Positions 6,809-59,343 of a DNA stretch of 64,000 nucleotides are shown here, piece by piece. The notes under the pieces are model-generated. The model saw only the letters and a program-made list of their open reading frames with translations. It was not told where the DNA came from and searched no databases. Position 1 is the first letter of the stretch, and every line of letters begins with the position of its first letter. Source of the stretch: a phage. The position numbers were made by a program, and so were the translations under genes. Where the stretch lies: the NCBI GenBank assembly GCA_014686905.1, contig GCA_014686905.1_4093.1. The stretch is one strand, 5' to 3'.

Positions 6809-6829
6809 AGCCACTACAATGTAGTGGCT
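6809..6829. terminator. bidirectional rho-independent terminator between convergent genes
   Basis: Hairpin AGCCACTAC-AAT-GTAGTGGCT flanked by A-run upstream and T-run downstream. Confidence 0.6.
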
Positions 6830-6836
6830 TTTTTTA

Positions 6837-7991: not shown

Positions 7992-8107
7992 TTATCCCTC
8001 CATTGGTATAATTATTATAACGTATTTATTATGCATATCCAAAAAATGAGCTTGACTGGTGTATGATTTGGTGTTATCATGTAGTGAATGAATAATGAGG
8101 TGTTTTT

Positions 8108-8916: not shown

Positions 8917-9374
8917 TTATGTTTAAGAATTTTATGGTTATCGTAGCAGTACTGTTTGGTACATCATGTTTCATTTCCCCAGTACACGCAGAAGAACAAC
9001 GTCAAACTATTAAAACTATTGGGACTGGTAAAACTCCCCCTAAACGTACTGCTGAAGAATACATGCCTGAAATGCGTGAACGTTATCGTCAGACATACAG
9101 GGAAAAACATGCTAATGATAAACCCATCAAGAAGCATAAATGGGAAGTTGTTAAATCTCCTTCATTTTGTGCTGGATATGCTAAAGTAAAGATTGAGCAG
9201 CACAAAAAACAGTACTATAAAGATATGTATTACTTCTATGACTCCAGAATTTCTGACACAGATATGATGGCAGGGAAGGTTGATAAAGAAGAATTTCTAC
9301 AAGGCTATGATATGATGGACGATGACAAAATCATGGAATGCGTTGAAGTGTATGAAAAATACAGAGGCTTCTGA
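8913..9374 (+). CDS. secreted hypothetical protein (153 aa)
   Basis: ORF; N-terminal signal peptide ending ...PVHA/EE. Confidence 0.6.
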   Translation: MIMFKNFMVIVAVLFGTSCFISPVHAEEQRQTIKTIGTGKTPPKRTAEEYMPEMRERYRQTYREKHANDKPIKKHKWEVVKSPSFCAGYAKVKIEQHKKQYYKDMYYFYDSRISDTDMMAGKVDKEEFLQGYDMMDDDKIMECVEVYEKYRGF

Positions 9375-9850
9375 TGTTAACAATAGTGTTGTTGGTAAGT
9401 CCATTTGTGTATTTTGTGCTGTATAATATTTTTAGTAATGCTAATCATTTTAAATATGCACAAACAATTGCAAAACATGAAGGATTTTGGAATTTTTTCC
9501 CAGCGTTACTATGCTCATATCTATACCATGAACGCTATTTCATTTTTCCTGAATATAAAAATTATGGTTATGATTCTAAAGTAAATGGTATAATTGAGTA
9601 CTGTATAAGAAATTATCTTAATAATAATGATAACGTCCAAGTAAGAATAGGAAATGGTAATATACCAAGAATAGTTTTCATACCTGATATACAAGACCCA
9701 ATATACTTATATCCATATGATTATAGTATTAGTGTAGGTTGTTCGATACATGGTAGTAAATCTATGTACGATTACTTTATCTTACCACCAACACAAATTA
9801 GATTAATAGAAAAATATTTGAGGGAAAAGTTTGACAACAAAGATTCTTAG
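9374..9850 (+). CDS. hypothetical protein (158 aa), N-terminal TM
   Basis: ORF from track. Confidence 0.55.
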   Translation: MLTIVLLVSPFVYFVLYNIFSNANHFKYAQTIAKHEGFWNFFPALLCSYLYHERYFIFPEYKNYGYDSKVNGIIEYCIRNYLNNNDNVQVRIGNGNIPRIVFIPDIQDPIYLYPYDYSISVGCSIHGSKSMYDYFILPPTQIRLIEKYLREKFDNKDS

Positions 9851-9891
9851 TATTATAATTAACACACCAAGTAACCCAAGGGGGATGGAAA

Positions 9892-10350
9892 ATGGATGTA
9901 TTAGCTACAAATTTCAAACGTAATGTTGAAGAGCGTGAAGGTTATTTTAGTATTAGTGAAGTTGTCGATGACAATTTTAAACAATACATTTTTAATAGTG
10001 CAATTAAATTAAAATGCACAAAGGATTCACCTGATCGTAGCTTTACTAAATGGATTGCATATTGGGAGGATTCACCAGTTGCAATTGAAATGACTGTGAT
10101 TACAACAGTACTTGAAACTGGTTACATCAAAGCCATTATAGTTGATAAGAAAGTCCGTACTCTTGATGAAATTAATCCATATCCAGCCCGAAATTCTAAA
10201 GTTTTTGGTGTGTTGGTTGATGGTAAATTTATGATAGAAAAAGATGCAAAGGAATATGTAATTAATAAACTTCAAACTACATCAGAAAAAAAGGAAGTAG
10301 TGGACCAAAACTCTGTTGATGCAATCAAAAAAGCATGGGGACTAAAGTAA
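9892..10350 (+). CDS. hypothetical protein (152 aa)
   Basis: ORF, SD GGGGGA upstream. Confidence 0.6.
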   Translation: MDVLATNFKRNVEEREGYFSISEVVDDNFKQYIFNSAIKLKCTKDSPDRSFTKWIAYWEDSPVAIEMTVITTVLETGYIKAIIVDKKVRTLDEINPYPARNSKVFGVLVDGKFMIEKDAKEYVINKLQTTSEKKEVVDQNSVDAIKKAWGLK

Positions 10351-10351
10351 T

Positions 10352-10774
10352 ATGTTCACACTAAGTAATGCAAAATATCTTTTTCTTATTAGTATTATTG
10401 GTTGGGTTATGGCTCCAGTGCTAAATGCACTGGGGTTTTCCGATGAACATAAACTTGTAAATGTTTCAGGTTTAATTCAGGGTATTTCATGGTATACATT
10501 AATTACATTTTCAGTGTGCATCAATACATTTGCCCGTGATTATCGACGTTTGTTATATCTGAAAGTATTTGGAACTACACGATATAGTTTTGTTTACACT
10601 TTCATTTTAGTACCGTGTATGTTATATGCATTTGTATTTGATTACTATACATATCTATGGGTATGTGGAACTATGTTTGTTATGTTGGAATACATCAGAA
10701 CTGTTCAAAACTCATATGCCGATGAGTTTCATGATCTAGAAGTTAAACGAAAATTAACGGAGCTAAACAAATGA
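10352..10774 (+). CDS. hypothetical membrane protein (140 aa)
   Basis: ORF with several hydrophobic segments. Confidence 0.55.
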   Translation: MFTLSNAKYLFLISIIGWVMAPVLNALGFSDEHKLVNVSGLIQGISWYTLITFSVCINTFARDYRRLLYLKVFGTTRYSFVYTFILVPCMLYAFVFDYYTYLWVCGTMFVMLEYIRTVQNSYADEFHDLEVKRKLTELNK

Positions 10775-11196
10775 GAGGCTATAATAAGATTTGTATTTTT
10801 GTATTTTTAGTTTGTGCATTCAATTCGTTTGGTTACTACTGTACAGAAAATAATATTTCATATGGTTTAAATCCTTTGTGGTTTACAATTTCTAATGTAG
10901 CACAAATTGGTATTGCTCTTATGTCTGCACTTATGTTCTGTTCAATTGTCACAATGGATACTGATCATGAAAGGCTTGTATTTCTCCGTGATACTGGAGA
11001 CGAACCTTACAGTAGATTAATTGTGTTGTATCCATTTATTGTTATTTTAGGTACTAACATCCAACTTGGGTCATTATCTAATAGTGTTACATCAGCAGCT
11101 ATTGCTATATTTGCATTCACATTTTTTATGGTACACAAATCAGTACTTAATTGGTATATCACAAAAATGGCAGAAGAAGGTACTAAAAATACTTGA
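10771..11196 (+). CDS. hypothetical membrane protein (141 aa)
   Basis: ORF with several hydrophobic segments. Confidence 0.55.
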   Translation: MRGYNKICIFVFLVCAFNSFGYYCTENNISYGLNPLWFTISNVAQIGIALMSALMFCSIVTMDTDHERLVFLRDTGDEPYSRLIVLYPFIVILGTNIQLGSLSNSVTSAAIAIFAFTFFMVHKSVLNWYITKMAEEGTKNT

Positions 11197-11255
11197 CATA
11201 ATTTAGTATGTTATATATAATTATTTTGTTAAAAACAAATTAGAGTAAGGAACTT

Positions 11256-11507
11256 ATGAACATCGATAAGGTCAAAGAACTTAGTGCTGCACTAATTAAG
11301 AATGAAGAAGTTTGTGAAGAACTTCGCAGTACTATCAAAGTTGAGTACGCACGACTCCAAGGTATGCTTCAAGAATCAGAATGGGTAGTAACTAAATCTA
11401 TCGAAGCAATCTATAAGGATATTGAATCCCTTTTCAACAAGAAAAGTAAGATTGAATCTGATTCATATAACAAACGTAAAGAGTTATCTACTGCACTTGG
11501 TATCTAA
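11256..11507 (+). CDS. hypothetical protein (83 aa)
   Basis: ORF, SD AAGGA upstream. Confidence 0.5.
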   Translation: MNIDKVKELSAALIKNEEVCEELRSTIKVEYARLQGMLQESEWVVTKSIEAIYKDIESLFNKKSKIESDSYNKRKELSTALGI

Positions 11508-11581
11508 AAGTATTTTACATAACAAATAATATGGAGTACAATGTGCTCCTAATTTAATTATCAGCTAAAAAGGAAAACATT

Positions 11582-11842
11582 ATGAAATCTATTCTCGTTG
11601 CAGTTAACCTGGTTGCTTCCCCATCTTTCAACTTCAAACAAGTTGTTGCTGATAATCTGAAGAAGATCTGTCCAAACGCTGAATTGACTTTCTGTGTATT
11701 TGATTCAGAAAAAGTAACTAAAGTTGATCTAAACTATCTTTTGAACGAAGTACAAAGCGTTTCTGGTGAAAGTAACTTAAAAGTTCTTCATGAGATTGCA
11801 GAAGATTATGATGACACTCTAGTAATTTCGGAGAAATTCTAA
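11582..11842 (+). CDS. hypothetical protein (86 aa)
   Basis: ORF, SD AGGAAA upstream. Confidence 0.5.
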   Translation: MKSILVAVNLVASPSFNFKQVVADNLKKICPNAELTFCVFDSEKVTKVDLNYLLNEVQSVSGESNLKVLHEIAEDYDDTLVISEKF

Positions 11843-11847
11843 ATCAA

Positions 11848-12267
11848 ATGATTACATTCATTCAGTACTTAATCATTAAATTTTTTGGCTATTATACGAT
11901 TGAGGGCAAAGCTACGCTTGCACATAAAATCTTTGTAGCATTATGTACGGGTGATTATGACGTATTGAATAAGTACTGTAAATCTAAAGAATGTATTGAT
12001 ATAATGGCACTTCGTATCTATGAGTGCCGATCCAATAGATACAATTTTTACCAGTACAGATTTGATAAAGAAGAATTTGATAGCATCAAAATGCTAAAGA
12101 ATTTATGTAACAATAAAAAGAATATGCATATATCAGAATTTGTTGCTTTGTATTTTTATTTAAAAAGTTCATTGTATATGAACACGATGCAAAGATTCGA
12201 TACTAGAATTAATGTATTCACCGATAAAGAATTTTATATATACGATAAATTCTTAGATAAGGTTTAA
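11848..12267 (+). CDS. hypothetical protein (139 aa)
   Basis: ORF from track. Confidence 0.5.
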   Translation: MITFIQYLIIKFFGYYTIEGKATLAHKIFVALCTGDYDVLNKYCKSKECIDIMALRIYECRSNRYNFYQYRFDKEEFDSIKMLKNLCNNKKNMHISEFVALYFYLKSSLYMNTMQRFDTRINVFTDKEFYIYDKFLDKV

Positions 12268-12268
12268 T

Positions 12269-12766
12269 ATGACAACTGTTTATATTGATAAACGATTAAA
12301 TTTATTGATTACCGATTCTAGAGTTACGTCAACTATACCACGAAACTTATTTGGTTTTTTCCCACTAAGACCAAAATATCAATATGGAGTTGTTAATCAA
12401 AAAACTTTATATGTACATGACCGTTTATTCAGTGCTAGTGGGTCAGTAAGTGAAATTGATAAAGTACTGGATTGGTTAATTAATAAAGTACCAGTTATAC
12501 CTGACAGAAAGTTAAGTTGCCATTGTGTGCTTCTTTCTAAAGATTATGTTATTCATATGATTTTAACTAAAGGAAAGTTTATTAAAAAACTTGAATATCT
12601 ACATGAAGACTACACTTTCTTTATGGGAAGTGGTGGAGAATACATGCTAGATGCTGCTATTCATGAAGAACATACAACTTTATATGATAAAGTGTTTAGT
12701 ACTTTCATGGATGTGCATAACCATGATTGCTTCACAGATGATAATATTAATGTATATCGATTTTGA
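12269..12766 (+). CDS. hypothetical protein (165 aa)
   Basis: ORF from track. Confidence 0.55.
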   Translation: MTTVYIDKRLNLLITDSRVTSTIPRNLFGFFPLRPKYQYGVVNQKTLYVHDRLFSASGSVSEIDKVLDWLINKVPVIPDRKLSCHCVLLSKDYVIHMILTKGKFIKKLEYLHEDYTFFMGSGGEYMLDAAIHEEHTTLYDKVFSTFMDVHNHDCFTDDNINVYRF

Positions 12767-12787
12767 TTTCGTCATTAGGAGATGTAA

Positions 12788-13753
12788 GTGAAAAAGCTTG
12801 ATTTAAATACAATTGCCGAAGAAGTTCTGGATGAATGTTTTGCTAATGAAGAAGTCAACACACTAGAAGCCTTAGATTTCGTTGAAGATAAAGATGAAAA
12901 TGAAGGTAAAGTACAAAGCAGTTTCAAATATAATATTACACTTAAGCGACCACCAAATGTTTCCAATGAAGATCTAATTCGTGATATTCAAGCTGGTATC
13001 AATATAAAGAAAAACACTGAACTGTTAGTTCGTTACAATTATGGACTTATTATTGATGTAGCAAGTAAATGTACTTGTTATATCCCATTTGAAGATAAGA
13101 TTTCATATGGTGTTGAGGGGTTCATGAGAGCACTAAAAACCTTTGATCTTAATAAGAATGTTAAGTTCATTACCTATGCTTCTTCTAGTATTTACATGAC
13201 AGTTTATAACGAAAGTTCTGACGCTAACTATATGGTACACTTCCCACGTTATATGAGTGTTCATAAGATCAAAGTAAAAAGATTCTGCCAGGAATATATG
13301 CGTAAACATGGTGTTCGCCCAACTCCTGAAATAATCTCAGAGGGTACTGGGATTGAGATTCAGCATGTTAATAACTGTTTGTTATTTCAAAGCGAATACA
13401 CTTCTCTGGATGCACCATTAGACGGTGTTACCGATGGTACACTAGGTGACATTATTCATTCACCTGCTTCTGATTTTAACCTCAATGTTGATAGTATTCG
13501 TGCACCTTTACGTTATGCTATCAATGAACTGACTAACGAATTGAGTACTAAAGAACGTGAGATTATCCAGCGTGTTCATGGTCTAGGTGAATATGAACCT
13601 GAAACGCTTCGTGAGATTGCTGATAATGGTTTTGTTGATGATAATGGAAAATATGTTAAATCCCGTTCATCAATACACCGAAAGTACAGTGAAGCTATGC
13701 AAAAGCTTAAGAAGTTAGTACTTGCAAAAGGGTACGAATACGAAGATTTCTAA
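12788..13753 (+). CDS. sigma-70 family RNA polymerase sigma factor (321 aa, GTG start)
   Basis: Region 2/3-like FITYASSSIYMTV...HFPRYMSVHKIKVKRFCQEYMRKHGVRPTPEII, region 4-like LSTKEREIIQRVHGLGEYEPETLREIA...SRSSIHRKYSEAMQKLKK; SD AGGAG 6 nt upstream. Confidence 0.8.
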   Translation: MKKLDLNTIAEEVLDECFANEEVNTLEALDFVEDKDENEGKVQSSFKYNITLKRPPNVSNEDLIRDIQAGINIKKNTELLVRYNYGLIIDVASKCTCYIPFEDKISYGVEGFMRALKTFDLNKNVKFITYASSSIYMTVYNESSDANYMVHFPRYMSVHKIKVKRFCQEYMRKHGVRPTPEIISEGTGIEIQHVNNCLLFQSEYTSLDAPLDGVTDGTLGDIIHSPASDFNLNVDSIRAPLRYAINELTNELSTKEREIIQRVHGLGEYEPETLREIADNGFVDDNGKYVKSRSSIHRKYSEAMQKLKKLVLAKGYEYEDF

Positions 13754-13761
13754 AGAACAAG

Positions 13762-13787
13762 GGTTGGCTTATGCCAACCTTTTTTTA
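13762..13787 (+). terminator. rho-independent terminator
   Basis: Hairpin GGTTGGC-TTAT-GCCAACC followed by T7. Confidence 0.65.
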
Positions 13788-13789
13788 TG

Positions 13790-14404
13790 GGATGAAGTAA
13801 AAGTTTGTGATATAATTATCTTGTACAATTCTGTTGGCATGATATTCATGTACCTGATCCACTCGAAAACGTAGAGGGCAGTTGAGCAGTCCGACAGTGC
13901 GAACAGCAAAAGAAACCCGTTAGATGTGGGCATAGTTTGAACCCCTCACGGCAATGCGGCTGTATAAAGAACCACGTTAGGATAGCTGGTGGTTCCTTGA
14001 TAGACATATAAGGATAACACCTTACGAATTATCTAAGGGAGAGTTATCGAATTTTGTACAGGAAAGTTGCGTCCAAAATTTGAGTACTCACATTAAGTAT
14101 TTGATTGCATAGATACTTAATGAAGATACACTATGTTTAAAAGTGTAGACCGTCATATGAAACTGAAGTAGAGAGAAACAGGATGACCCGCTTTCGCACT
14201 CGTTATGAGTAATCTTCAATGCAATAGCTCTGATACCATCAGCGTCAAATTTCCCTCCTTGTGGGGGGGAAGAAAAATCCCTTCCTCAAATCCCGTCAAT
14301 ATTAAAAGTCCTTGACAGTTATTAATCATTCGCGTAGAATACGTAGTATTAGAAGCGAACAGACATCTCGAAGAGATGGATGATTAACCATTAAGGAATA
14401 TCCA
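13790..14404. other. ORF-free, GC-richer structured region (candidate ncRNA or regulatory region)
   Basis: No ORF of 60 aa or more on either strand; several perfect hairpins (e.g. CATTAAGTAT...ATACTTAATG, GAACCAC...GTGGTTC). Confidence 0.25.
14313..14340 (+). promoter_or_regulatory. sigma70-like promoter TTGACA-N16-TAGAAT
   Basis: Consensus -35 and near-consensus -10, ~65 nt upstream of ATG 14405. Confidence 0.4.
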
Positions 14405-14614
14405 ATGAATTCAGTAATCTTTTTAGTAGTAGCTCTTTCCATGCAAAGCGGTGTACAAATCACTCCAATGAATTCCATGAATCAATGTATTTCTGTTCGT
14501 GATAGTACCTACGAACAGGTCAATAAAAATATCTGGATGTCTATTAACAAAGAACAGATGTGGTGTTATAACAGTAATACAAAAGTTAAACTGTTTGTTG
14601 GTGAGAAAGAATAA
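14405..14614 (+). CDS. hypothetical small protein (69 aa), signal-like N-terminus
   Basis: ORF, SD AAGGAA upstream. Confidence 0.4.
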   Translation: MNSVIFLVVALSMQSGVQITPMNSMNQCISVRDSTYEQVNKNIWMSINKEQMWCYNSNTKVKLFVGEKE

Positions 14615-14691
14615 TAGTTGACATATAAGAAGTACTAGAGTATACTTTCTATATTGAGTTCTAAAATAAAACATTAATTAAGAGGTTTATC

Positions 14692-14874
14692 ATGCAAATT
14701 ATCATTCTTATTGTTGGTATTATGCTGGGTGTGTATGGTCATAGTTGGATGCAGGAGAAGTTTCCTAATACACGTCCTGACTATTGCAGTTCTAATGTAT
14801 TCCAGAATGGTGAGAAACCAAAGGAAAGCATTGGTAAAAAGCTGGATAAAGTACTTGATGTGATCAATGAATAA
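14692..14874 (+). CDS. hypothetical small membrane protein (60 aa)
   Basis: ORF, SD AGAGG upstream. Confidence 0.4.
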   Translation: MQIIILIVGIMLGVYGHSWMQEKFPNTRPDYCSSNVFQNGEKPKESIGKKLDKVLDVINE

Positions 14875-15085
14875 GGGCCATAAAATGTTTAAACCGAATT
14901 CCAATGTTGGAAAGAAAGTTCAATTACTTGAGGATGTATCCACTCTGAGTGGCATTTTCCCAAGAGGTCACATCATGACTATTATTGCCGAAACATCCCG
15001 TGGGTGGGATTTGGAAGATGCTGATGGTAATCGCATCCTTGAGGCTGGATTCTATGGTCATCGTGAATATAAAATCATTGATTAA
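14867..15085 (+). CDS. hypothetical protein (72 aa)
   Basis: ORF overlapping upstream stop. Confidence 0.45.
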   Translation: MNKGHKMFKPNSNVGKKVQLLEDVSTLSGIFPRGHIMTIIAETSRGWDLEDADGNRILEAGFYGHREYKIID

Positions 15086-15181
15086 GGATACAACATGACT
15101 TTAGAGATTGTCTTTGGTATTGTTAGCTTAGTCGTCTGTGTGGGTTGGTTTGGGTATCTGATGATTTTTGGTGATTAATAC

Positions 15182-15209
15182 TTGACATAAGATATCAGTA
15201 CTGTATAAT
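15182..15209 (+). promoter_or_regulatory. sigma70-like promoter TTGACA-N16-TATAAT with CAGTACTG in spacer
   Basis: TTGACA 15182-15187, TGTATAAT 15202-15209, followed by conserved GTTTATATCAAA. Confidence 0.55.
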
Positions 15210-15239
15210 GTTTATATCAAACGAAATCCACTTTAACAA

Positions 15240-15533
15240 ATGATAGGAAATATTATGTCTTTTTCTAAAGAAGAACGTGACCTTATTAAAAAAGCAATCT
15301 GGTTTTATGCTAATGAAGGGAAGTGCGATGAAGAAAAAGCACGTGAACTGTGTAATATCTTTGAGAAGAAACAAGATCTAAAAGTGTATCGTATCCGTGA
15401 TTTGGATGAAGGGGATCGTATTGTCCTAGCTGAAACAAAAGAAGAAGCAGAACAAATCTTCACTGATAAAAACGAAAATCCACATTGGATGGAAGAAGTC
15501 TGTGATGTTAAAAAAGGTACTTATATCGATTGA
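15240..15533 (+). CDS. hypothetical protein (97 aa)
   Basis: ORF downstream of promoter 15182. Confidence 0.55.
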   Translation: MIGNIMSFSKEERDLIKKAIWFYANEGKCDEEKARELCNIFEKKQDLKVYRIRDLDEGDRIVLAETKEEAEQIFTDKNENPHWMEEVCDVKKGTYID

Positions 15534-15558
15534 CAGTACTGAATAATAGCAGTATAAT
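15530..15558 (+). promoter_or_regulatory. sigma70-like promoter TTGACA-N17-TATAAT
   Basis: TTGACA 15530-15535, TATAAT 15553-15558, same GTTTATATCAAA downstream box; leader hairpin GCAGTGA...TCACTGC. Confidence 0.55.
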
Positions 15559-15651
15559 GTTTATATCAAAGGGAATGCAGTGAAAGGAAAGACAGCATAA
15601 TCGTACTCGTCACTGCGTTTCCACCCTTTTAAATTAATTAAGGAATTAACT

Positions 15652-15960
15652 ATGTTTCAAACTAACACTCAAGGTTTTGTAATCATCGATTTGAATCAAA
15701 ACAGCGGTTATTGGATGAAACCTACTGACGCATGTATGCAGTTTGATTTCTTAGGTTACAGAATTAGTGTAAGTACTGGTGCTTCTGTACTGAGGGGTGG
15801 TTGTATCGTTGAACATCTGGTAACTGATCCAGAAGGTCGTGAGTATGAAATCGCAGGTTCAGTACAAGATGCCATTATGTTTGTATGTCAGCGTGAAATG
15901 AATGGTTCGAACTCAAATGCACTGACTCATGCTCTTTCTCAAGAAGTGGAGGTTCGTTAA
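15652..15960 (+). CDS. hypothetical protein (102 aa)
   Basis: ORF, SD AAGGAA upstream. Confidence 0.55.
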   Translation: MFQTNTQGFVIIDLNQNSGYWMKPTDACMQFDFLGYRISVSTGASVLRGGCIVEHLVTDPEGREYEIAGSVQDAIMFVCQREMNGSNSNALTHALSQEVEVR

Positions 15961-16211
15961 TGAAATACATTGTAGCAGTACTCGTCGCATTTTTACTCAC
16001 TGCATGTGATGCTTCAACCAAAGAACGCACAAGTGATTTTGAACTCCCTACTGAATTAAAAGAAGCAGGATGTAAGATTTATCGTATGCAACAGGAAGGT
16101 GCTGGTGCAACGTTGTATACAGTTTATTGTCCTAATGCAAACACCAGTACTGGATACACTAGCGGAAAAACACGAATCAACACTTCAGTGATTAATGGAG
16201 TACAACAATGA
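15960..16211 (+). CDS. putative lipoprotein (83 aa)
   Basis: Signal peptide with lipobox LLTAC. Confidence 0.55.
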   Translation: MKYIVAVLVAFLLTACDASTKERTSDFELPTELKEAGCKIYRMQQEGAGATLYTVYCPNANTSTGYTSGKTRINTSVINGVQQ

Positions 16212-16576
16212 GCCTTGATACAACCCGTGCAACAGATTTATTCACTCGTCTGAATGATGAAGAATATCTTGCTGAAATAAAGTACAAGCTTGAAAAACTG
16301 GCTCGAAGTGCTGAAGTAATTGAAGTTAAAGGTCATTTACCAATGGATCAATTCCATACGTTCAAAGAAGATATGGTTTATTATCCAAATGAAATTTGGA
16401 TTGAGTGGGAACATTGGACTAACAAAACTCTACGCATTGAAGGTTATTGTGTGAATTATGAATCTGAACCTGGTGATGTTACAAAAACTCTCTCCATTTG
16501 GTGTACAAAAACACATGAACTCGTTGAGGTGAATTTGAATTATATGAAAGGTTTCCGTTGGGGTGATGTTCAATGA
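16208..16576 (+). CDS. hypothetical protein (122 aa)
   Basis: ORF, overlapping coupling. Confidence 0.6.
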   Translation: MSLDTTRATDLFTRLNDEEYLAEIKYKLEKLARSAEVIEVKGHLPMDQFHTFKEDMVYYPNEIWIEWEHWTNKTLRIEGYCVNYESEPGDVTKTLSIWCTKTHELVEVNLNYMKGFRWGDVQ

Positions 16577-16848
16577 TTAAAAAACTATTGACAGTTGTCT
16601 TTGTATTCTGTACAATGTTTCTTACAGCATGTAATGATGACGGCAGGTTTAGTGCAAAAGACTTAGTTCGTCAGGATTGTACATTCACAGGTAAGTCTTT
16701 TATTAACGAGTATGAAATATGCACACAATCAGGTCGTATCTGTGGTGGTTGGGAAAAACGTCAGGAGCGATTGTATGTATATGAATGCCCTGGTCATCTC
16801 AACAAAGTACTGAGCACTCACAAACTTGTTTATGATAAGGTTGAATAA
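16573..16848 (+). CDS. putative lipoprotein (91 aa)
   Basis: Signal peptide with lipobox FLTAC. Confidence 0.55.
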   Translation: MIKKLLTVVFVFCTMFLTACNDDGRFSAKDLVRQDCTFTGKSFINEYEICTQSGRICGGWEKRQERLYVYECPGHLNKVLSTHKLVYDKVE

Positions 16849-17063
16849 TGACTACCAATGAAATGATGCAGGTCATCTGGGATAAAGGTTGCGATCTTAA
16901 AATCACCAGTACTGATGTTCGTGTATTCAAAACTGAATATATGGAGTACTTGGACCTTGATACTTATAATAATATTGTATCAATTGAACACAAAGGTGCA
17001 GTACTGGAAACAATTGACGTAGTACTGAAGAAAGCTACCGACCTATTAGGAGCGGCAGTGTGA
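16848..17063 (+). CDS. hypothetical protein (71 aa)
   Basis: ORF, overlapping coupling. Confidence 0.5.
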   Translation: MTTNEMMQVIWDKGCDLKITSTDVRVFKTEYMEYLDLDTYNNIVSIEHKGAVLETIDVVLKKATDLLGAAV

Positions 17064-17216
17064 ATAACAAAGAGTGGGAAGAGTACCGTAAGAAGTGCAG
17101 GGAGTTTGATAAAGAACTAACTGGTACAGTGAATGCAGTAATGTGGGTATCTGTAATTATTGCAGTTCTTGCGTTGGGTGCTATTATTATTAATAAATTA
17201 TTCTAAGGCGAATATC

Positions 17217-17417
17217 ATGTTTACTTTATATCTCGCAGTAGTTCTCACCAATGGTGAAATCACTCGTACTATTGGTGAAGGTGTATATAAAACACCAGAC
17301 CAGTGCTACTCTGCTACTCATTGGCCTCGCGATAGTGGGGATGAAACTCGCACTGAATTCAAATGCATGAAAGTAAAAGGTGATTTTGTTAACCTTAAGG
17401 TTATCGAGGCGAAATAA
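17217..17417 (+). CDS. hypothetical small secreted protein
   Basis: Probable start MFTLYLAV within track ORF 17160..17417. Confidence 0.4.
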   Translation: MFTLYLAVVLTNGEITRTIGEGVYKTPDQCYSATHWPRDSGDETRTEFKCMKVKGDFVNLKVIEAK

Positions 17418-17932
17418 TGGATATTAATGAGTTGTTGATCTTATTGTTTAATCGTGGAAATGATGTAAGACGTTCTGAATATCAAGACAAAATTCACATT
17501 GAAACTGATAAATGTTATGGTAAAACAACTCATGAGATTTTGAAGCCAAATGGCAAACGATATGCCGATGTATGTTTTCATGAACGAAGTGATGGTAGTG
17601 AAATAATCAGTACTGAAATTGTGTTTTATGATAGATCCTCGGCAGGTTCGTATGAAATAGAACTTATATATTGTCCTGGTTCAGAAACACACAATAAACG
17701 TCAGATATTATATGATGTTTATTCACCTCCAGGTGTAGCTGAATATTTTGTTATTGATTACAGTACTGAAGAAAGTGTGTTTCAACAGAGCTTGATTCAT
17801 AACTTCCAGTTGAATGATCCAAATGTACCAAAGTTGTTCAAACTACTCGATACTATCGATGTTGATTTTGAATTTGTTATGTGCATTAGAACTTCCTTGA
17901 TCGATGAATTTATGGAACTACTTAATATATGA
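17417..17932 (+). CDS. hypothetical protein (171 aa)
   Basis: ORF, overlapping coupling. Confidence 0.6.
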   Translation: MDINELLILLFNRGNDVRRSEYQDKIHIETDKCYGKTTHEILKPNGKRYADVCFHERSDGSEIISTEIVFYDRSSAGSYEIELIYCPGSETHNKRQILYDVYSPPGVAEYFVIDYSTEESVFQQSLIHNFQLNDPNVPKLFKLLDTIDVDFEFVMCIRTSLIDEFMELLNI

Positions 17933-18150
17933 ATCGTTACTACATTGTGTATGAGCATGTATCTGAGTTTAATAATGTACGTGGTTATAAGAAAGAAGTA
18001 CAGAAGATTGATGTATTTGTTCGTGCATTAAGTCCAACACATGCACTATTTAAATTGTTTGATGAAGTAACTAAGTACAACACACCAAAAACACAACGCT
18101 ATATTGAAACAGTACATAGTGTAATACTCACTGAATATGATGGAGAATGA
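17929..18150 (+). CDS. hypothetical protein (73 aa)
   Basis: ORF from track. Confidence 0.5.
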   Translation: MNRYYIVYEHVSEFNNVRGYKKEVQKIDVFVRALSPTHALFKLFDEVTKYNTPKTQRYIETVHSVILTEYDGE

Positions 18151-18153
18151 CAA

Positions 18154-18372
18154 ATGAATTTATATCTAGTTGAAGGGTCAGTACAAGTATCCAAGCAAGA
18201 CGGAGAAGGGTATCGTTTTTCACATGTAGAATATTTTAAGTACGTAGTAAAGGCCGATGGTCAGTACGACGCAGAAATTCAGGTTGAAGAATCATTCCGT
18301 AAGAAGAATGATATTGGTAAATTTGAATACCAAGACTTACAATTCACTGTATGGCCTAGCATTAATGACTAA
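18154..18372 (+). CDS. hypothetical protein (72 aa)
   Basis: ORF from track. Confidence 0.5.
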   Translation: MNLYLVEGSVQVSKQDGEGYRFSHVEYFKYVVKADGQYDAEIQVEESFRKKNDIGKFEYQDLQFTVWPSIND

Positions 18373-18612
18373 GATGTGGTGGTGTCATGGTGTCTACAAT
18401 GTCTATGAATATGGTAGATTCAAAATGAGCAGCACCTATGCCAGACGTGTTAATGCGAACAACCAAGTTGATGCTGCTTGTGAGATCATTGAGTGGTATG
18501 CTGAGTTCAATGCACCTGACTATATGTACGAAATAGTTACAATAAATGTTGTACAAATCGATACATCTTTGATACAATAACCACATCAAAAAAATTGCAT
18601 CTGAGGATACTT

Positions 18613-19275
18613 ATGTTAGTTAATCTTAATTTCATCACTTCACCTGACTGGGCATTACGTGGAGTTTCTTTAAACTTCAAGGAAACTATGTTTGACTACA
18701 TTGGTGAGTGTACATTGGTAAATGCAACTTTTGATCCAAATCATCCGTTTTGGGCTGAAATTCATGATCCAAATGTAAACAACAATACATCTGTTATGAC
18801 TATTGTCCAGACTAAACATGCAGGTATCCTTGCAGGTTATCGACCTGCACATGCAATTGAACACTTCACTGATTACGATGTCGTGGATGAATACCCAATG
18901 ATCCATGAAGATGGAAGTCTATACACATCTGAAGACTTCCGTGCTATCTTTAATAGTACTGATGATATTCTACCAAGTGGACGTCCACGTCCTGAGTCTT
19001 ATCTTATGCATCCATCTTATGGTGTAGCAGATACGCTTGAACAGATTATGAATAAGTACAAGAACCTAATTGAAGGTCCAGAAGAAATTGTCCTGTGCTA
19101 TCACCCAGTACTGAAGTCTGAACAACCAAAGGATGGTGGATGGCGTTGGCATAAGAATGGTGAGTATATCGGTACTAAACGAAGTAAAGAACGTTTTGAG
19201 TACTTGTATGATGAGCCAGATGTTGATGTGGTTTTGTGTTATAATTTTATTAAGGTGAAAAAGAAATGTATCTAG
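18613..19275 (+). CDS. hypothetical protein (~220 aa)
   Basis: ORF; start MLVNLNF with SD GAGGA 6 nt upstream. Confidence 0.6.
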   Translation: MLVNLNFITSPDWALRGVSLNFKETMFDYIGECTLVNATFDPNHPFWAEIHDPNVNNNTSVMTIVQTKHAGILAGYRPAHAIEHFTDYDVVDEYPMIHEDGSLYTSEDFRAIFNSTDDILPSGRPRPESYLMHPSYGVADTLEQIMNKYKNLIEGPEEIVLCYHPVLKSEQPKDGGWRWHKNGEYIGTKRSKERFEYLYDEPDVDVVLCYNFIKVKKKCI

Positions 19276-19508
19276 TACTAAGTTTTGTTGTTGCACTATT
19301 GTTTATGTTCTATCCTACACTAGTGGCATTAGCCACTAGACGAACGATGGTAGATCTCACTACTGTATTCTTGCTAAACGTGGCATTAGTACTGGTTTCT
19401 ATTATCATTCCAGTGAGCTTTACAGTTATTGATATTATTTCGGTATTACTCTTCGTGTTAAGTTATCTTATGCTTATTGAAGAAACAAATGTTGACAAAC
19501 GTTCGTAG
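19266..19508 (+). CDS. hypothetical membrane protein (80 aa)
   Basis: Two hydrophobic segments. Confidence 0.5.
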   Translation: MYLVLSFVVALLFMFYPTLVALATRRTMVDLTTVFLLNVALVLVSIIIPVSFTVIDIISVLLFVLSYLMLIEETNVDKRS

Positions 19509-19566
19509 TACTGTATAATGGTTCCTGTAGTCTGAAACTTAACACTTAAACTTGAGGTAAAAAAAT

Positions 19567-19893
19567 ATGCTATCAGTACTAATTTCAATTCCGTCTTTAA
19601 TTCTGATTTGGCTTCTGGTTTACGAATGCTTCATTACTGATGATAATGATAAAAAAGAGTTCTCTGAGTTGTTTATGCTTGATTCACCGATTGTGCGTAT
19701 TTTCTATGCAGTCGTTGTGGTTTCAGTAATTGTATGGGTTTTGAGTTTTATCTTCCCACTCGGTGCAGTAGTTAAAACTTTGGATTTAGTTGAGAACTTT
19801 GTTGCAATTATGTGGCTAATCAAAGCACTATTTGCAGGAAATGTTAAAATTTGGATTGATATTATCAAATTCAAGTTCACGAATAAGATGTAA
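19567..19893 (+). CDS. hypothetical membrane protein (108 aa)
   Basis: Hydrophobic segments, SD GAGG upstream. Confidence 0.55.
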   Translation: MLSVLISIPSLILIWLLVYECFITDDNDKKEFSELFMLDSPIVRIFYAVVVVSVIVWVLSFIFPLGAVVKTLDLVENFVAIMWLIKALFAGNVKIWIDIIKFKFTNKM

Positions 19894-19971
19894 CAGTGAA
19901 AATATCTCTATAGTATTAAATACTTCTGTACATATATATAGTACAGAAGTATTTCTCGTTAGAGGTTTGTT

Positions 19972-20331
19972 ATGAAGAGTTATATAAAATTAATAGCACT
20001 TGTGTGTGCATTATTTTCATGTTTTAGTTATGGTGCAGCAGCAGAAACATATTGTCGTAGTACTAAGGGAACGTGGCATGTATTGACTAACGACCCTAGA
20101 AATGGTAAAAATATAGTTGTTGATGGTGTGATTTATCGTTTTAAAGTAGAAAGTATTATCGGTAATAAAAAAATCTCGACTTATAGAGATGATTCTGGTA
20201 CATTAGCAAACGTAATATTAATTGTAGACCCAAGAACTGGTAATGGTGATATCTATATAGTAATTTACTTGGACTCATCGGTACGCCGTGACCTAGATAT
20301 AGATAAATTGAACTTACACTGTGAAATATAG
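19972..20331 (+). CDS. secreted hypothetical protein (119 aa)
   Basis: Signal peptide ...SYGAAA/ET. Confidence 0.55.
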   Translation: MKSYIKLIALVCALFSCFSYGAAAETYCRSTKGTWHVLTNDPRNGKNIVVDGVIYRFKVESIIGNKKISTYRDDSGTLANVILIVDPRTGNGDIYIVIYLDSSVRRDLDIDKLNLHCEI

Positions 20332-20341
20332 GACTTAAAAA

Positions 20342-20719
20342 ATGGTAAACACTATTTTACTTTTGTTGTTGAATATTCCAATTATTCTGTCTTTTTTAAT
20401 TTCTATTTTTATGGCAGGATATTGTTTAGTTGCAGTAATTCATTTCATTTTAACAAACAAATATGTCCTAATTTCTAAGCTTGATTCTATTTTTGCTTGC
20501 GATTCGATTGCTTATAACTTGTGGTTAATTTGTTCTTGCATTATGGGAGTAACTTTCCTTCTGTATGTATTTGATGTCCTTGACCAAAAGTTCGTATACA
20601 TCAGTACTGGATTGGCTCTTTATCCTGCTACGTGGTACTTGATTTACGTTGGTGATATATGGTATAGTACTTATAAAGAATATCAGTACAAGAAATCACT
20701 TAACGTTGGAGGAAAATAA
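20342..20719 (+). CDS. hypothetical membrane protein (125 aa)
   Basis: Multiple TM-like segments. Confidence 0.55.
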   Translation: MVNTILLLLLNIPIILSFLISIFMAGYCLVAVIHFILTNKYVLISKLDSIFACDSIAYNLWLICSCIMGVTFLLYVFDVLDQKFVYISTGLALYPATWYLIYVGDIWYSTYKEYQYKKSLNVGGK

Positions 20720-20721
20720 TC

Positions 20722-21072
20722 ATGAAAATTATTTTATTTTTTGTATGTATGTTAATGTGTGGATTGTCATATGCTGAACCATTGGAAGGTTTAGTTTGTA
20801 CCGATGGTAATATTAAACATATCTATCAAGGTGATAGTGACGATCGAGATATTGTATATATTGATGGACAATCATATACGTTTGTTAAAGAGCATACAGT
20901 AGGCGACATTAGCTTCACTGAGTTTTCTAACGACACAGACCCTAACTTCTTAGCGTTTATTGAAGTAGATGTATATGAAGATAGTAATGGTACACAATAT
21001 GCTAAATTAGTTATGATGCGTCGTGGTGCTAAAGAAACTAGTTTTGGTGGCTTGTGTAAATATAAGGATTGA
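20722..21072 (+). CDS. secreted hypothetical protein (116 aa)
   Basis: Signal peptide ...LSYA/EP; loosely paralogous to 19972..20331. Confidence 0.55.
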   Translation: MKIILFFVCMLMCGLSYAEPLEGLVCTDGNIKHIYQGDSDDRDIVYIDGQSYTFVKEHTVGDISFTEFSNDTDPNFLAFIEVDVYEDSNGTQYAKLVMMRRGAKETSFGGLCKYKD

Positions 21073-21076
21073 TATT

Positions 21077-21268
21077 ATGTTGATTTATCAAGGTGATAAT
21101 ATTCGTGTTATGCAGCATCCCTACTTACAAATCTTTGATGTGCAGCAGTATATGGAAGGTGATGACCCAAGAACCTATGGTCGTAAGTATGATTACTTCA
21201 CTGTAAAGCAGTGTAACAATATTAACGAAGTACGACAATTAGTTCAAGAACTTCAAAACAAAGGTTGA
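21077..21268 (+). CDS. hypothetical protein (63 aa)
   Basis: Start MLIYQGDN with SD AAGGA; track ORF starts 21023. Confidence 0.45.
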   Translation: MLIYQGDNIRVMQHPYLQIFDVQQYMEGDDPRTYGRKYDYFTVKQCNNINEVRQLVQELQNKG

Positions 21269-21294
21269 CTTCGGTCAGCCTTTTTTGTTATAAT
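21263..21294 (+). terminator. terminator-promoter cassette (UUCG hairpin whose 5' arm is the -35 box)
   Basis: GGTTGACTTCGGTCAGCC + T6, then TATAAT 18 nt after TTGACT. Confidence 0.65.
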
Positions 21295-21322
21295 TCTCTT
21301 AATAAATTAGAGGATTTTAATT

Positions 21323-21763
21323 ATGTATGTATATCGTTTTGAACTTAAATTTAGTTACATTGAACCTAACTTAGATCCTGCACGAACTGTAGGTCCGTTT
21401 GCACGGTATTCAACCAGATACAGTACTAAAAATGGATTTGACCGTTTGCTCATGACTACACCTTCTCAATTCCAACCTGAACCAACTGAGGATGGGATCT
21501 ATTCAATCAAAAGTGGATGGGTATTTGGCTGTCAAAGTTTGAAAGATTTGTTCAGATTCTTCACTATGGACTTAGGTAAATTGCATCGTGCTGGGTTTGC
21601 TATATCTGTATATGAAGTTCCAGACCACCATGTAGACATTGGTCGTAATCAGGTTCAGTACTATTGCGGTAGTGCTAAATTAGTTCGTATCATGTCAGTT
21701 AAGGAAGCAAAGGATGAGTTCCGACAAAGTAAAAGAGAAACACATGAGGTAATATATGGATAA
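21323..21763 (+). CDS. hypothetical protein (146 aa)
   Basis: ORF downstream of cassette, SD AGAGGA. Confidence 0.6.
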   Translation: MYVYRFELKFSYIEPNLDPARTVGPFARYSTRYSTKNGFDRLLMTTPSQFQPEPTEDGIYSIKSGWVFGCQSLKDLFRFFTMDLGKLHRAGFAISVYEVPDHHVDIGRNQVQYYCGSAKLVRIMSVKEAKDEFRQSKRETHEVIYG

Positions 21764-57380: not shown

Positions 57381-58429
57381 TTAAACACAAGTAGACAGGG
57401 GAAGCTCCTAGTGAACAACCTTTATGTACAGGCGAATTGTTAAAATTCAGCCTGGACAAATGCGATCACTAGGATTCTCCCCAGGCTAAACCCCGTAATC
57501 ATAGGTAGTCATAAGTAATCATATATAAACATTTATATGAGCACCGTAGAATCACAGAATGATTATATATGATTCAGTACTGATTAGTATAGACAAGAAT
57601 GCTCAAGAATGCACGGGAAGGATTCAGTACTGATATGCCACTAAGTAGGCAGAGGAAGTCTGCCGTACTTTTTAGTTTCCAAGCTCCTTTTCCATTTTTC
57701 AAATTACATCAAATGTAATCAAAAGTAATCACGCAATGATTAGTACTGAATTATTACTTTCACCTTAATTTCAATTACCCCTTTACCCTTCGGGGTAAAA
57801 TTCAATTACCCCTTGAGGCTCCAGCAAAAAGTTGGTTAGTACTCCATCCTAAATCTCGATCCTAAAAATTTTGGAGTACCTATGAAATAAAAGTTGGATC
57901 TTCGAAAGTTGAAATTTACGTTGGGACGTTTATGATTTGTGGGATATAATGATGTTTGTAGTCGGGTAGTTCTCAAGAATATCAGTACTGAATAATGAAA
58001 GAAAGCTATTGACATTATGATTCAGTACTGTATAATGTTCTACATAGAGAGATGAGTTGCTGCGAACAATTCATTTACTCTATCTCCTGTCGTGAGACAG
58101 TACAGAAAAGATAGTTCCTCCTGTGGTGGTACATCTTTTTGAACCTCATATGAAAATCGTAATAACAGTACTGATATTAACAGAATGGTGTCAGTACTGA
58201 TTTTAATCTAAAGCATTATGCCACCAGCTTGTGCTGGTGGATTCCCTCTAACAGTATTCAGTACTACATGATGGTCTTCATCCTCCTAGGGTAACATAGT
58301 GAGGGCTATGATGGCAGTACTGAATACTCCCTTTCAAAAGATAGATCTATGGTATAGTACTGACGGATTTTGGGTGTAGTTACCCTGGATGGATTTTGGG
58401 CGTAGATATGTCTAGCCCTCCAGAAGTCT

Positions 58430-58545
58430 GGAAGTAAAGATGGCTATCCATCTAGACGGCTAAACGGCTAGATGGCTGGATGGCTAGACGTTTGGACGGC
58501 TAAACGGCTAGATGGTTACACGTCTGGAAGTATAGACGGCTAAAT
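58430..58545. repeat. iteron-like short direct repeats
   Basis: GACGGCTAAACGGCTAGATGG twice plus partial third copy; GTCTGGAAGTA twice. Confidence 0.6.
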
Positions 58546-59158
58546 CAAAATTTTATTTTGTTTTTCCAATAGTTCCCCTACCGCGTGGGGATAGTTTCCC
58601 CGCAGTATCTGGCGTTAGATTTTTCTGAATCTGGAATCATTATCTTATAAACTGGGGGCAATGTCAACGACCTGGACGGATATTTTTAAAAATTTTTTCA
58701 GTACTGAATTTTGGGCGTAACTATGCACCCGGTGGGCTTGAGTCTTTCTCGACTTGATGGAACTATTATACAGTACTGGAAAAATAAAGCAATACCCTGG
58801 ATGAAAAAAGTTTTAATTAATTTGCTTGCCATCCTGGGCCGGACTATGGTACTATATTTCAGTACTGAGAAAGTGCGTTTACCTGCTAGGGTGCGGGAGT
58901 GTATCCTTTTTTTATATCTTGAATTTTGGACGGATCTTCCCACCCCCTGGGGTATCCGCTTTCTCGCGTCTATGTAGTAATTATACGCTTTTTCAGGATC
59001 AAGTCAATACCTAAAAACAAAATAATTGAAAATAATTTAACGCGTTTAAACGGCCCGTAACGCCCTGGAATGATTAGAATGGTGCAAATGTATAGCTTAG
59101 GTGTATTAATGCGTTAGAATGCGTCTGAGGCCGTTTTATGGGGTGTAGTAGTGATTTG

Positions 59159-59251
59159 GTTGATTCAGTACTGAATAATAGTACTCCTATATAGAAAGAT
59201 AGTTCCCCTGGATTGATTCAGTACTGAATAATAGTACTCCTATATAGAAAG
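59159..59251. repeat. ~38-bp direct repeat, two copies
   Basis: TTGATTCAGTACTGAATAATAGTACTCCTATATAGAAAGA twice, separated by ~15 bp. Confidence 0.7.
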
Positions 59252-59283
59252 AAAACTATTTTAAAAGTATTTGTAGAAAGTAC

Positions 59284-59343
59284 TTGCACCGTACTGATAA
59301 AAGCGTATAATGTTTTACATCGAGAGCGGGAACACTTCCCGCT
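59284..59343 (+). promoter_or_regulatory. PeSL-like cassette: promoter + 5' stem-loop
   Basis: TTGCAC-N16-TATAAT, GTTTTACAT, stem AGCGGGAA-CAC-TTCCCGCT. Confidence 0.6.

Follow-up and report, generated by a model that had tools for sequence, protein, structure and literature searches.

A non-coding hub in a jumbo phage genome

The region described here is a 1.92-kb hub at positions 57381-59300 of a 64,000-nt stretch of phage DNA (contig GCA_014686905.1_4093.1; the whole stretch is referred to as the window), lying between an array of small open reading frames (ORFs) and a GC-richer block. Comparison of the hub with phage sequences resulted in matches to 42 records, all from Asteriusvirus, with 90-98% identity. 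These records represent jumbo phages of Escherichia and Salmonella (PBECO4, 121Q, phAPEC6, G17 and others) and, judged by this identity, the source of the window is an Asteriusvirus of the PBECO4/121Q/G17 group of jumbo coliphages.

A preliminary description of the window, made from its letters alone, had called the hub ORF-poor, and this was borne out. The ORFs of at least 30 amino acids within 57381-59309 are only 31-88 amino acids long, overlap each other and are found on both strands. In an alignment of the hub with nine relatives (77-99% identity), every one of these ORFs was interrupted by stops or frameshifts in at least three of the nine, while the flanking genes remained open in most relatives. 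Searches of the hub ORFs against Pfam and PHROGs gave no match; the flanking genes do match PHROG families. A conserved protein-coding gene, one of the findings that the preliminary description had listed as refuting its view, was looked for across 57381-59366 by ORF conservation in the nine relatives and by the family searches, and none was found; nor did a scan for tRNA and tmRNA genes identify any in the hub. Several carefully annotated records leave the region blank and automated ones place five to eight 'hypothetical proteins' in it, spurious entries that annotators should drop.

Other features listed in the preliminary description were recovered as well, at the positions given there and mostly above chance level. 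The GC content does step up, from ~0.33 before 58000 to 0.39-0.41 after it. All three hairpins that had been pointed out fold better than shuffled sequences, and the iterons and direct repeats correspond to an 8-bp array, two sets of 10-bp-period repeats and a perfect 40-nt duplication, besides which the hub contains several smaller families of direct repeats. The dense sites for the palindrome CAGTACTG amount to 12 in 57381-59300 where 1.36 would be expected at the window's own rate (Poisson P = 2.4e-8), an approximately nine-fold concentration, and no more than five were found per 1.92-kb stretch elsewhere (stretches with starts up to 55000 were scanned). The whole window contains 56 copies (0.85 expected from shuffles, 0.66 from base composition), making CAGTACTG its commonest 8-mer. 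From base composition the window should contain 22 copies of the hexamer AGTACT (a ScaI site) and 206 of GTAC; it has 224 and 584, an excess of ten-fold and nearly three-fold, respectively. Over-representation of a palindrome to this degree is unusual for a phage. In a literature search for the CAGTACTG string the matches examined were a sample, all of them unrelated.

Probable genome terminus and sequence around the cut

In Asteriusvirus records of 366-384 kb the hub region is located approximately 19-21 kb from one end of the record, so a direct terminal repeat (DTR) was suspected. The linear genome of G17 (MK327931, 370,817 bp) has its first 20,668 bp 100% identical to its last 20,668 bp, and its right physical end maps to position 57643|57644 of the window, with the sequence ...GATATGCCACTA|AGTAGGCAGAGGAAGTCTGCC... 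across the boundary. Position 1 of six other records (CRJP21, BAU.Micro_ELP-22, E9.1, fEgEco12, vB_Ec-M-J and BF17) is the homologue of 57644, and the record of vB_Ec-M-J annotates a DTR at 1..21,525. In independent work, the ends of G17 were set by read coverage (PMC6563267), those of fEgEco12, which has a 20,993-bp DTR, by PhageTerm and restriction digests (PMC13070987), and those of ELP-22 and E9.1 by PhageTerm (PMC11465974, PMC11737134); PhageTerm also gave a 20,668-bp DTR for Sharanji (PMC11895373). Published DTRs among relatives in the genus thus span 20,668-21,525 bp, and in those of G17, fEgEco12, Sharanji and vB_Ec-M-J the repeat starts at the homologue of 57644. The DTRs of CBB and of Kae01 (Klebsiella phage fENko-Kae01), a phage of another genus whose 19,736-bp repeat was set by PhageTerm, indicate that repeats of about 20-22 kb are general across the wider Rak2-like group.

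Based on the repeat end of G17, the starts of the six records at 57644 and the published end mapping, we interpret the hub as the concatemer junction and terminal region of a PBECO4/121Q-type Asteriusvirus whose packaged genome would start at 57644, a reading to which we assign a probability of roughly 0.85. A packaging signal was among the candidate functions in the preliminary description, and this candidate is strongly supported, with the ends of seven relatives mapping to 57643|57644 inside the hub; the terminus analysis of packaged DNA that it suggested is covered by the published mapping in relatives, which indicates a fixed end at the hub. By homology to G17 and the six records, position 57644 (+ strand) would be the first base of the DTR and the physical left end of packaged DNA. 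The 263 bp from the stop of the last small ORF (57380) to the start of the repeat (57381-57643) form the non-coding, unique-side half of the concatemer junction, and in the virion would be located directly ahead of the right-hand copy of the DTR. To the right, 57644-59366 constitutes a 1.72-kb non-coding leader, retained in every relative, before the first early gene of the DTR (ATG at 59367). The DTR of ~20.7 kb extends rightward beyond the end of the window; downstream of the hub it consists of consecutive small genes, all with individual promoters and many with individual terminators, and the GC-richer block is this early-gene region. The mosaic junction proposed in the preliminary description is better termed a DTR boundary, with true indel mosaicism confined to the 263-bp unique side.

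Within the unique side, 57441-57540 is 88-99% conserved, and both 57381-57440 and 57541-57620 are rich in indels among relatives. The conserved portion contains an inverted repeat AGCCTGG ... CCAGGCT (57449-57487; 94-99% column identity in nine relatives) and, upstream of the cut, GTAATCA-type repeats with a 10-bp period (57495-57537; Tandem Repeats Finder (TRF) period 10, 2.2-2.9 copies). A second set of 10-bp-period repeats, TCAAATGTAA x 3.3, is located inside the DTR at 57699-57731, 55-88 nt from the end, and is 94% conserved. One repeat family (D7) is common to the 57495-57537 array and 57708-57731, on opposite sides of the cut. The GTAATCA-type repeats are a candidate face-of-helix binding site for a protein, possibly the small terminase.

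Directly 5' of the terminus, 57625-57643 contains a cut-site signature consisting of CAGTACTG, a spacer and CACTA. The junction in the window reads TTCAGTACTGATATGCCACTA|AGTAGG; on its unique side, the conserved segment ATTCAGTACTG...GATATGCCACTA follows the indel-rich stretch. The junction of Kae01, with ends determined by PhageTerm, reads ...TTCAGTACTTACCCCCTTCCGCTA|TATCTTCTctgtataAGAAGATA..., i.e. TTCAGTACTTACCCCCTTCCGCTA|TATCTTC, and this version of the cut site is also carried by EJP2, a divergent Asteriusvirus, and by the Erwinia phage Hallingskeid. The right end of the Hallingskeid record did not match its own hub homologue; this record is without a second repeat copy and gave no terminus. 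The lineage of the window and Kae01 share a layout in which a spacer separates a CAGTACT palindrome from CTA, with the cut directly after it and an inverted repeat starting at the end, yet despite this equal layout their terminal sequences on the DTR side are unrelated.

In the window the inverted repeat is AAGTAGGCAGA-ggaag-TCTGCCgTACTT followed by five T residues (57643-57673, + strand), and corresponds to the terminator-like hairpin that had been noted at 57644-57675. Folded as 57640-57680 it has a free energy of -13.6 kcal/mol (z = -2.9), and it was also found by a terminator scan. Its stem comprises six pairs (four of them G-C), or ten including the flanking AAGTA/TACTT, and precedes TTTTT, in agreement with the pattern of a Rho-independent terminator. 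Positions 57641-57660 are 98% conserved among relatives. The end of Kae01 is likewise an inverted repeat, TATCTTCT-ctgtata-AGAAGATA, of unrelated sequence and without a T-run. Terminal sequences in Asteriusvirus seem to be of two unrelated types: the PBECO4 type starts AGTAGGCAGAGG..., and the EJP2 type, which is common to Kae01 and the Erwinia phage, starts TATCTTCTT...AAGAAGTAT (EJP2 2860-2935; Hallingskeid 2840-2900). The presence of two types within one genus suggests exchange of terminus cassettes.

Further inside the repeat, a direct repeat AAT(T/A)TCAATTACCCCTT x 2 (57767-57814, + strand; family D11) surrounds the UUCG-loop hairpin that had been noted at 57778-57798, which folds in an alternative register as 57772-57804 (-9.5 kcal/mol, z = -2.5). 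Repeat and hairpin are probably dispensable, since insertions or deletions affect 57767-57814 in ph0011, A4 and CMSTMSU.

The element that follows, CTCCAGCAAAAAG ... AGTACTCC-ATCCTAAATCTCGATCCTAAAAATTTT-GGAGTACC at 57819-57880, contains two ATCCTAAA units 13 bp apart in an 8-bp inverted repeat. It is 94-99% conserved among relatives and forms an island, CTCCAGCAAAAAG...AGTACTCCATCCTAAATCTCGATCCTAAAAATTTTGGAGTACC, in an alignment of five lineages represented by the window, EJP2, Kae01 (Klebsiella), XbC2 (Xanthomonas) and Hallingskeid (Erwinia). Outside the genus, blastn searches with 57381-58060 matched only this element and a promoter core at 57998-58051. Its position in Kae01 is 86-127 nt from the end set by PhageTerm, and in the XbC2 record it occupies 54-120; Hallingskeid and EJP2 contain it as well. 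In UE-S1, ph0011 and A4, which form one Asteriusvirus clade, both ATCC units have changed together to ATCG, and this joint change fits recognition of each unit by a protein. Reading the inverted repeat as an RNA hairpin was rejected, as there was no clean covariation in XbC2, and it is taken to be a DNA site.

Taken together, these elements suggest a model in which the terminase would cut concatemers after ...CACTA, at the foot of the short inverted repeat, aided in recognition by the phased repeats on both sides and by the ATCCTAAA element ~200 bp inside the repeat.

A number of observations count against this interpretation of the hub and its elements. The terminus was placed by homology with the ends of relatives and not from virion DNA of the window phage itself, and some of the records may have been re-oriented to earlier ones rather than independently mapped. 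A comparison of the two DTR boundaries of G17 for a common motif yielded only 9-14-mers at chance level. The right arm of the terminal hairpin is degraded in phage A4, and this hairpin could be a mere terminator of the upstream ORF array. The length of the spacer in the cut-site signature varies among the nine relatives, with a 9-bp insertion in UE-S1 and TH47; given the variable spacer and the degraded arm in A4, neither signature nor hairpin is proven to be the recognised feature. CAGTACTG and AGTACT are over-represented across the window, inside genes too, and are specific neither to the hub nor to promoters, and the number of sigma-70-like matches in the region is not above that in shuffles (12 vs 12.5). 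The right end of the Hallingskeid record did not match its own hub homologue; this record is without a second repeat copy and gave no terminus.

Conservation and promoters of the leader

In eight relatives, 96-100% of the length of the DTR part of the hub can be aligned, at 84-96% identity. These values resemble those of the genes downstream, and the small-ORF array upstream, covered to only 17-97%, falls below the leader in coverage. The order of elements is collinear in the five-lineage alignment. This conservation argues that the leader is under constraint and older than the genus. It also bears on the possibility that the hub is decayed coding DNA or a recombination scar, its hairpins and repeats being produced by the AGTACT bias together with ordinary terminators. 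The ten-fold excess of AGTACT throughout the window, the indels of the 263-bp unique side and the small ORFs called by automated annotation would fit such an origin; the coverage and identity of the DTR part across the genus, the element order, covarying stems and promoter hexamers conserved in other genera, and the lack of any conserved ORF do not, and we regard decay as highly improbable. With a leader kept as tightly as genes and an architecture found in at least three other lineages or genera, the region offers a defined cis-acting sequence in which the cutting and packaging of 350-kb genomes, their injection and their earliest transcription can be studied.

The untranslated block at the DTR boundary has its closest analogue in phage T5. 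Repeat Region 3 of T5 is a 1.2-kb untranslated block at the boundary of the DTR that includes a 270-bp overrun into unique DNA; it contains nested palindromes, inverted repeats and a nine-copy direct repeat, is better conserved than nearby ORFs, and its adjacent genes are transcribed away from it (bioRxiv 10.1101/866236). The injection stop signal (iss) has been proposed to reside there, its function still being a model (bioRxiv 10.1101/866236). The hub resembles this region in extending over 1.72 kb of the DTR and 263 bp of unique DNA, in being untranslated with conserved nested repeats and palindromes, and in bordering small early genes; it differs in being without pairs of DnaA boxes and without sequence similarity, and in belonging to a T4-superfamily jumbo myovirus rather than a siphovirus.

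By analogy, the DTR might enter the cell first from its far end, the repeats and palindromes of the hub halting transfer until DTR proteins have been made. The match in layout, including the overrun into unique DNA and the equal kinds of repeats, conservation at least equal to that of the neighbours, and a DTR of dozens of small genes with their own promoters, as expected of a host-takeover module, are all in line with such an injection stop. However, paired DnaA boxes, the core of Davison's iss, are absent: the hub contains no TTWTNCACA and, allowing up to one mismatch, three sites where 6.2 are expected. In addition, the sequence shows no similarity to T5, the literature covered contained no report of two-step injection in these myoviruses, and the model fails if the hub end enters first. 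We consider an injection stop quite improbable. Comparison with the unexplained iss of T5 may help with that old question.

The main reading of the hub, as a concatemer junction with a terminal leader, makes it a well-resolved instance of a type of feature known from T5 and T7. Phage T7 has exact terminal repeats of 160 bp, cut from concatemers at fixed sites, and duplication of the repeat has been proposed to pass through a hairpin close to its boundary. Its promoters A1-A3 are located ~500-750 bp from the left end, and transcription is used for genome entry. Fixed concatemer cuts and strong, inward host-type promoters a few hundred bp from the end, ahead of the first gene, would be common to T7 and the hub, but the repeat of T7 is 160 bp compared with 20.7 kb, and T7 is not known to have outward promoters, arrays or palindromes of the CAGTACTG type. 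The terminal redundancy of SPO1 is a host-takeover module with many small early genes having strong host-type promoters and terminators. It is comparable as a long DTR of small early genes; this likeness lies in the DTR genes rather than in the leader, and the sequences are unrelated. For the Rak2-like phages, GenBank and publications already record that a DTR exists and where it lies. The papers on G17, fEgEco12, Sharanji and CBB do not cover the anatomy of the leader, the common logic of the cut site or its conservation beyond the genus. The fEgEco12, G17 and Sharanji papers address the existence and length of the repeat only, the words 'promoter', 'non-coding' and 'intergenic' being absent from those on fEgEco12 and Sharanji (PMC13070987, PMC11895373), and the CBB paper addresses promoters genome-wide, not the leader.

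The first promoter encountered from the genome end, P1 (58009-58036, + strand), is a perfect consensus sigma-70 promoter (TTGACA, 16 nt, TATAAT; 12/12 match) that points inward, 366-393 nt from the end. CAGTACTG occupies the 3' half of its spacer, and its -10/start region, TATAATGTTCTACATAGAGAG, shares 91% identity with the corresponding region of the first early gene (family D15). P1 is 93-99% conserved among relatives, and an inward consensus promoter is found at a similar distance from the end in EJP2, Kae01, XbC2 and Hallingskeid.

Nine site-directions were identified in which CAGTACTG abuts a WATAAT hexamer, compared with fewer than one expected; five are in the hub and include P1. The same combination of CAGTACTG and promoter is seen in promoters of Hallingskeid, XbC2 and Kae01. 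Since a palindrome over the spacer beside the -10 hexamer occupies the position expected of an operator, we infer that a dimeric regulator of early transcription, specified by the phage, most likely uses CAGTACTG as its operator. The CAGTACTG sites against -10 hexamers thereby provide a testable candidate operator for the early-to-middle switch.

Downstream of P1, 58043-58241 (+ strand) is an ORF-less structured region and a candidate small RNA or leader. Its five hairpins include CUGUC-GUGA-GACAG, a stem followed by U5 at 58106-58140, a double-CAGTACTG hairpin at 58166-58199 and an 8-bp stem at 58222-58241. The 220 nt downstream of P1 (58043-58262) have a minimum free energy of -67.3 kcal/mol (z = -4.78). 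Analysis of covariation in eight distinct relatives identified six compensated pairs compared with 1.8 in shuffles (1 of 500 shuffles reached this number), with 93.9% of cells paired, and owing to G.U pairs the fold of the P1 transcript works on the + strand only. JNE01 has lost a 20-codon ORF at 58051, which carries a frameshift in A4. The hairpin at 58222-58241, CCACCAGC-loop-GCTGGTGG, which had been noted for its perfect 8-bp stem, was folded as 58216-58247 with -16.3 kcal/mol (z = -4.5); Kae01 retains this hairpin, and A4 has a compensatory change in its closing pair. In ph0011 and TH47 its loop is reverse-complemented (TTGT to ACAA) with the stem unchanged, the signature of a hairpin or cruciform flip. 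A search of both strands of 57000-59800 against Rfam 15 gave no covariance-model match up to E = 1, and the literature search found no published transcriptomes or promoter studies of Asteriusvirus. It is plausible that P1 yields a small RNA or leader of 100-160 nt. The suggestion of a non-coding RNA locus in the preliminary description thus gains plausibility from P1, the ORF-less fold and the modest covariation, and is unproven.

An inward promoter so close to the end is also what a T7-like entry leader would require, in which the hub end enters first, host RNA polymerase starting from P1 (~390 bp in) helps to pull in or express the rest of the genome, and the non-coding DNA serves as an end buffer. 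Consistent with this role, an inward sigma-70 promoter of consensus sequence, not followed by an ORF, lies within a few hundred bp of the end in every lineage examined. Set against this, the P1 transcript meets terminator-like hairpins within ~100-160 nt and three further promoters point outward, so that an entry leader of this kind appears unlikely.

Inner leader and neighbouring genes

The remainder of the leader contains further repeats and promoters. Direct repeats GGATTTTGGG(T/C)GTAG (families D9 and D16) are located at 58364-58410, with more copies at 58705 and 58918; homologous repeats at 645-690 of Kae01 make the TTTTGGGYGTA repeats a collinear island across lineages. They are followed at 58439-58544 by a tandem array of about 11-13 8-bp units with consensus CTAGACGG (TRF periods 8, 32 and 40), corresponding to the iterons of the preliminary description. 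The core with an 8-bp period is CTAGACGG x 11.4 at 58452-58542, and overlapping arrays with a 40-bp period extend the tract to its full length. Copy number among relatives drifts in 8-bp steps (8- and 24-bp indels). CTAGACGG units are also found in EJP2 and XbC2, and Kae01 and Hallingskeid have a GAGAAT/ATTCTC array at the equal relative position.

Adjoining the array is an AT-rich stretch (58542-58572; 87% A+T) that is 98-99% conserved, and beyond it a block conserved across genera, CCTACCGCG-hairpin-GCAGTATC (58577-58609; -13.2 kcal/mol). Its flanks CCTACCGCG and GCAGTATC are near-invariant in the five lineages, with one mismatch each in XbC2, and its stem covaries (GGGGA/UCCCC, CGGAAT/ATTCCG, CTGGT/ACCAG and CAGGG/CCCTG). 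A leftward promoter, P_L1 (58639-58667, - strand; TTGACA, 17 nt, GATAAT; 11/12 match), is directed at hairpin block, AT-rich stretch and array; both of its hexamers can be aligned in the five lineages, and its spacer is variable.

Array and AT-rich stretch might represent the iterons and unwinding element of a replication origin, or P_L1 could prime replication from an R-loop in the style of T4. T4-type R-loop origins (oriF/oriG style) have a promoter with an unwinding element shortly downstream, an arrangement that P_L1 and the AT-rich stretch resemble. The array directly abuts the stretch of 87% A+T; P_L1, conserved in five lineages, is directed into that stretch from ~60-90 nt upstream; and different lineages have their own type of array at one position, a pattern that co-evolution of the sites with a binding protein would produce. 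The second-half minimum of the cumulative GC skew of the window, at ~57-58 kb, would also agree with an origin, but was rejected as evidence because gene content changes where the skew turns and because the window, 64 kb out of a 350-kb genome, is too short for such an analysis. On the other side, DnaA boxes are lacking, no initiator gene is recognisable among the neighbours, the 8-bp unit, with a freely drifting copy number, is shorter than typical iterons (the units of plasmid and phage iterons are roughly 20 bp), and a copy in both terminal repeats would mean two origins per molecule. The replication origin put forward in the preliminary description is thus not supported, with array, AT-rich stretch and inreading promoter being suggestive only, and we regard an origin at this site as doubtful.

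To the right of P_L1, a leftward unit at 58690-58804 (- strand), in which CAGTACTG abuts TATAAT (58778 down to 58765), occurs in the window and in EJP2, and the five-lineage alignment shows nothing corresponding to it in Kae01, XbC2 or Hallingskeid. Its paralogue at 62372-62464 is part of a second copy of the leftward promoter unit (62372-62480). This copy consists of TTGACA-N17-CATAAT, whose spacer contains CAGTACTG, followed by ACAUAAAGACG...CCCACAGGGUGCC, and runs into a bidirectional terminator hairpin (CGGGGAGATAATAACTCCCCG); it is a candidate antisense or small RNA of ~100 nt within the DTR. A weak rightward promoter (TTGCCA, 18 nt, TACTAT) at 58826-58914 (+ strand), followed by a terminator-like hairpin at 58888-58907 and seven T residues, converges on a further leftward promoter, P_L2; at the matching position Kae01 has a consensus rightward promoter.

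P_L2 (TTGACT, 16 nt, TATAAT, 59007 down to 58980; 11/12 match) and its transcribed segment occupy 58887-59007 (- strand). The 5' part of the transcribed segment is ACAUAGACGCGAGAAAGCGG..ACCCCAGGGGGUG, with a distal arm CCGCACCCU, and a paralogue is located at 62437. The -10 hexamer is kept in all five lineages, in weakened form in XbC2, as are a -35-like TTGAC/TTGCG and the initial ~40 nt of the transcript; the spacer differs. An RNA structure of the P_L2 transcript was considered and found to be unsupported, as RNAalifold gave one compensatory pair and the arms in the window itself are mismatched; the conserved segment may act as RNA or as a DNA site. A scan of IMG/VR for the P_L2 segment returned five stretches on four contigs only, too few to widen the comparison.

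A tandem duplication of TTGATTCAGTACTGAATAATAGTACTCCTATATAGAAAGA, with two perfect 40-nt copies 53 bp apart (59160-59199 and 59213-59252, + strand; family D1), precedes the first gene. The first copy in EJP2 is without the segment AATAGTACTCCTATATAGAAAG, and conservation among relatives falls to 57-61% at 59181-59220.

The first DTR gene is preceded at 59284-59369 (+ strand) by a promoter TTGCAC, 16 nt, TATAAT (59306-59311), a hairpin GCGGGAA-cac-TTCCCGC at 59326-59342 and the ATG at 59367, and this module of promoter plus hairpin recurs at 59766, 60447, 61007 and 62532. The five early genes have a near-identical promoter, AAAGTACTTGCAAACTATGTTTAAAGGCGTATAATGTTTTACATC, and a GGGAA...TTCCC-type hairpin in the 5' transcript, possibly a signal for mRNA stabilisation or processing. 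The product of the first gene matches PHROG 7352, and most records annotate a 363-nt form. G17 and some other records have a 139-aa form starting at 59310 (59310-59729); since that start is inside the gene's own -10 hexamer, the 120-aa form from 59367 is the plausible one.

Following injection, host RNA polymerase would use P1, P_L1 and P_L2 and then the promoters of individual early genes, with P1 producing the structured non-coding RNA or leader and CAGTACTG against -10 hexamers acting as operator for the dimeric phage regulator. A bolder proposal is that the ~1.7-kb leader is a terminal control region common to several genera of Rak2-like jumbo phages, in which the lineage-specific array, the ATCCTAAA element near the terminus, convergent promoters for non-coding RNAs and CAGTACTG operators would govern either staged entry, with a pause at the DTR boundary as in T5, or the start of replication. 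We give this a low probability; if true, it would be a cis-acting system undescribed for any T4-superfamily phage.

Directly upstream of the junction, 55211-57380 (+ strand) contains about a dozen tandem paralogues of 59-81 aa, in an array that begins at ~53.9 kb. Many start with MHKE(F/Y)Y and end with ..LIYRY/LIFRY, they match PHROG 11711, a family of unknown function, and relatives differ strongly in how many and which of them they contain, coverage falling as low as 17%. Further to the left, ~42400-53100 (minus strand) contains repeated genes of ~380 aa that are labelled in relatives as RCC1, 'regulator of chromosome condensation' or 'DNA condensation protein', each preceded by a near-identical module of a GCCAGTACTTGATACTGGC hairpin, a T-run, ...TATAATGAATAAGGAGG and the ATG. 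The sole tRNA in the window is a tRNA-Thr (TGT) at 1434-1507.

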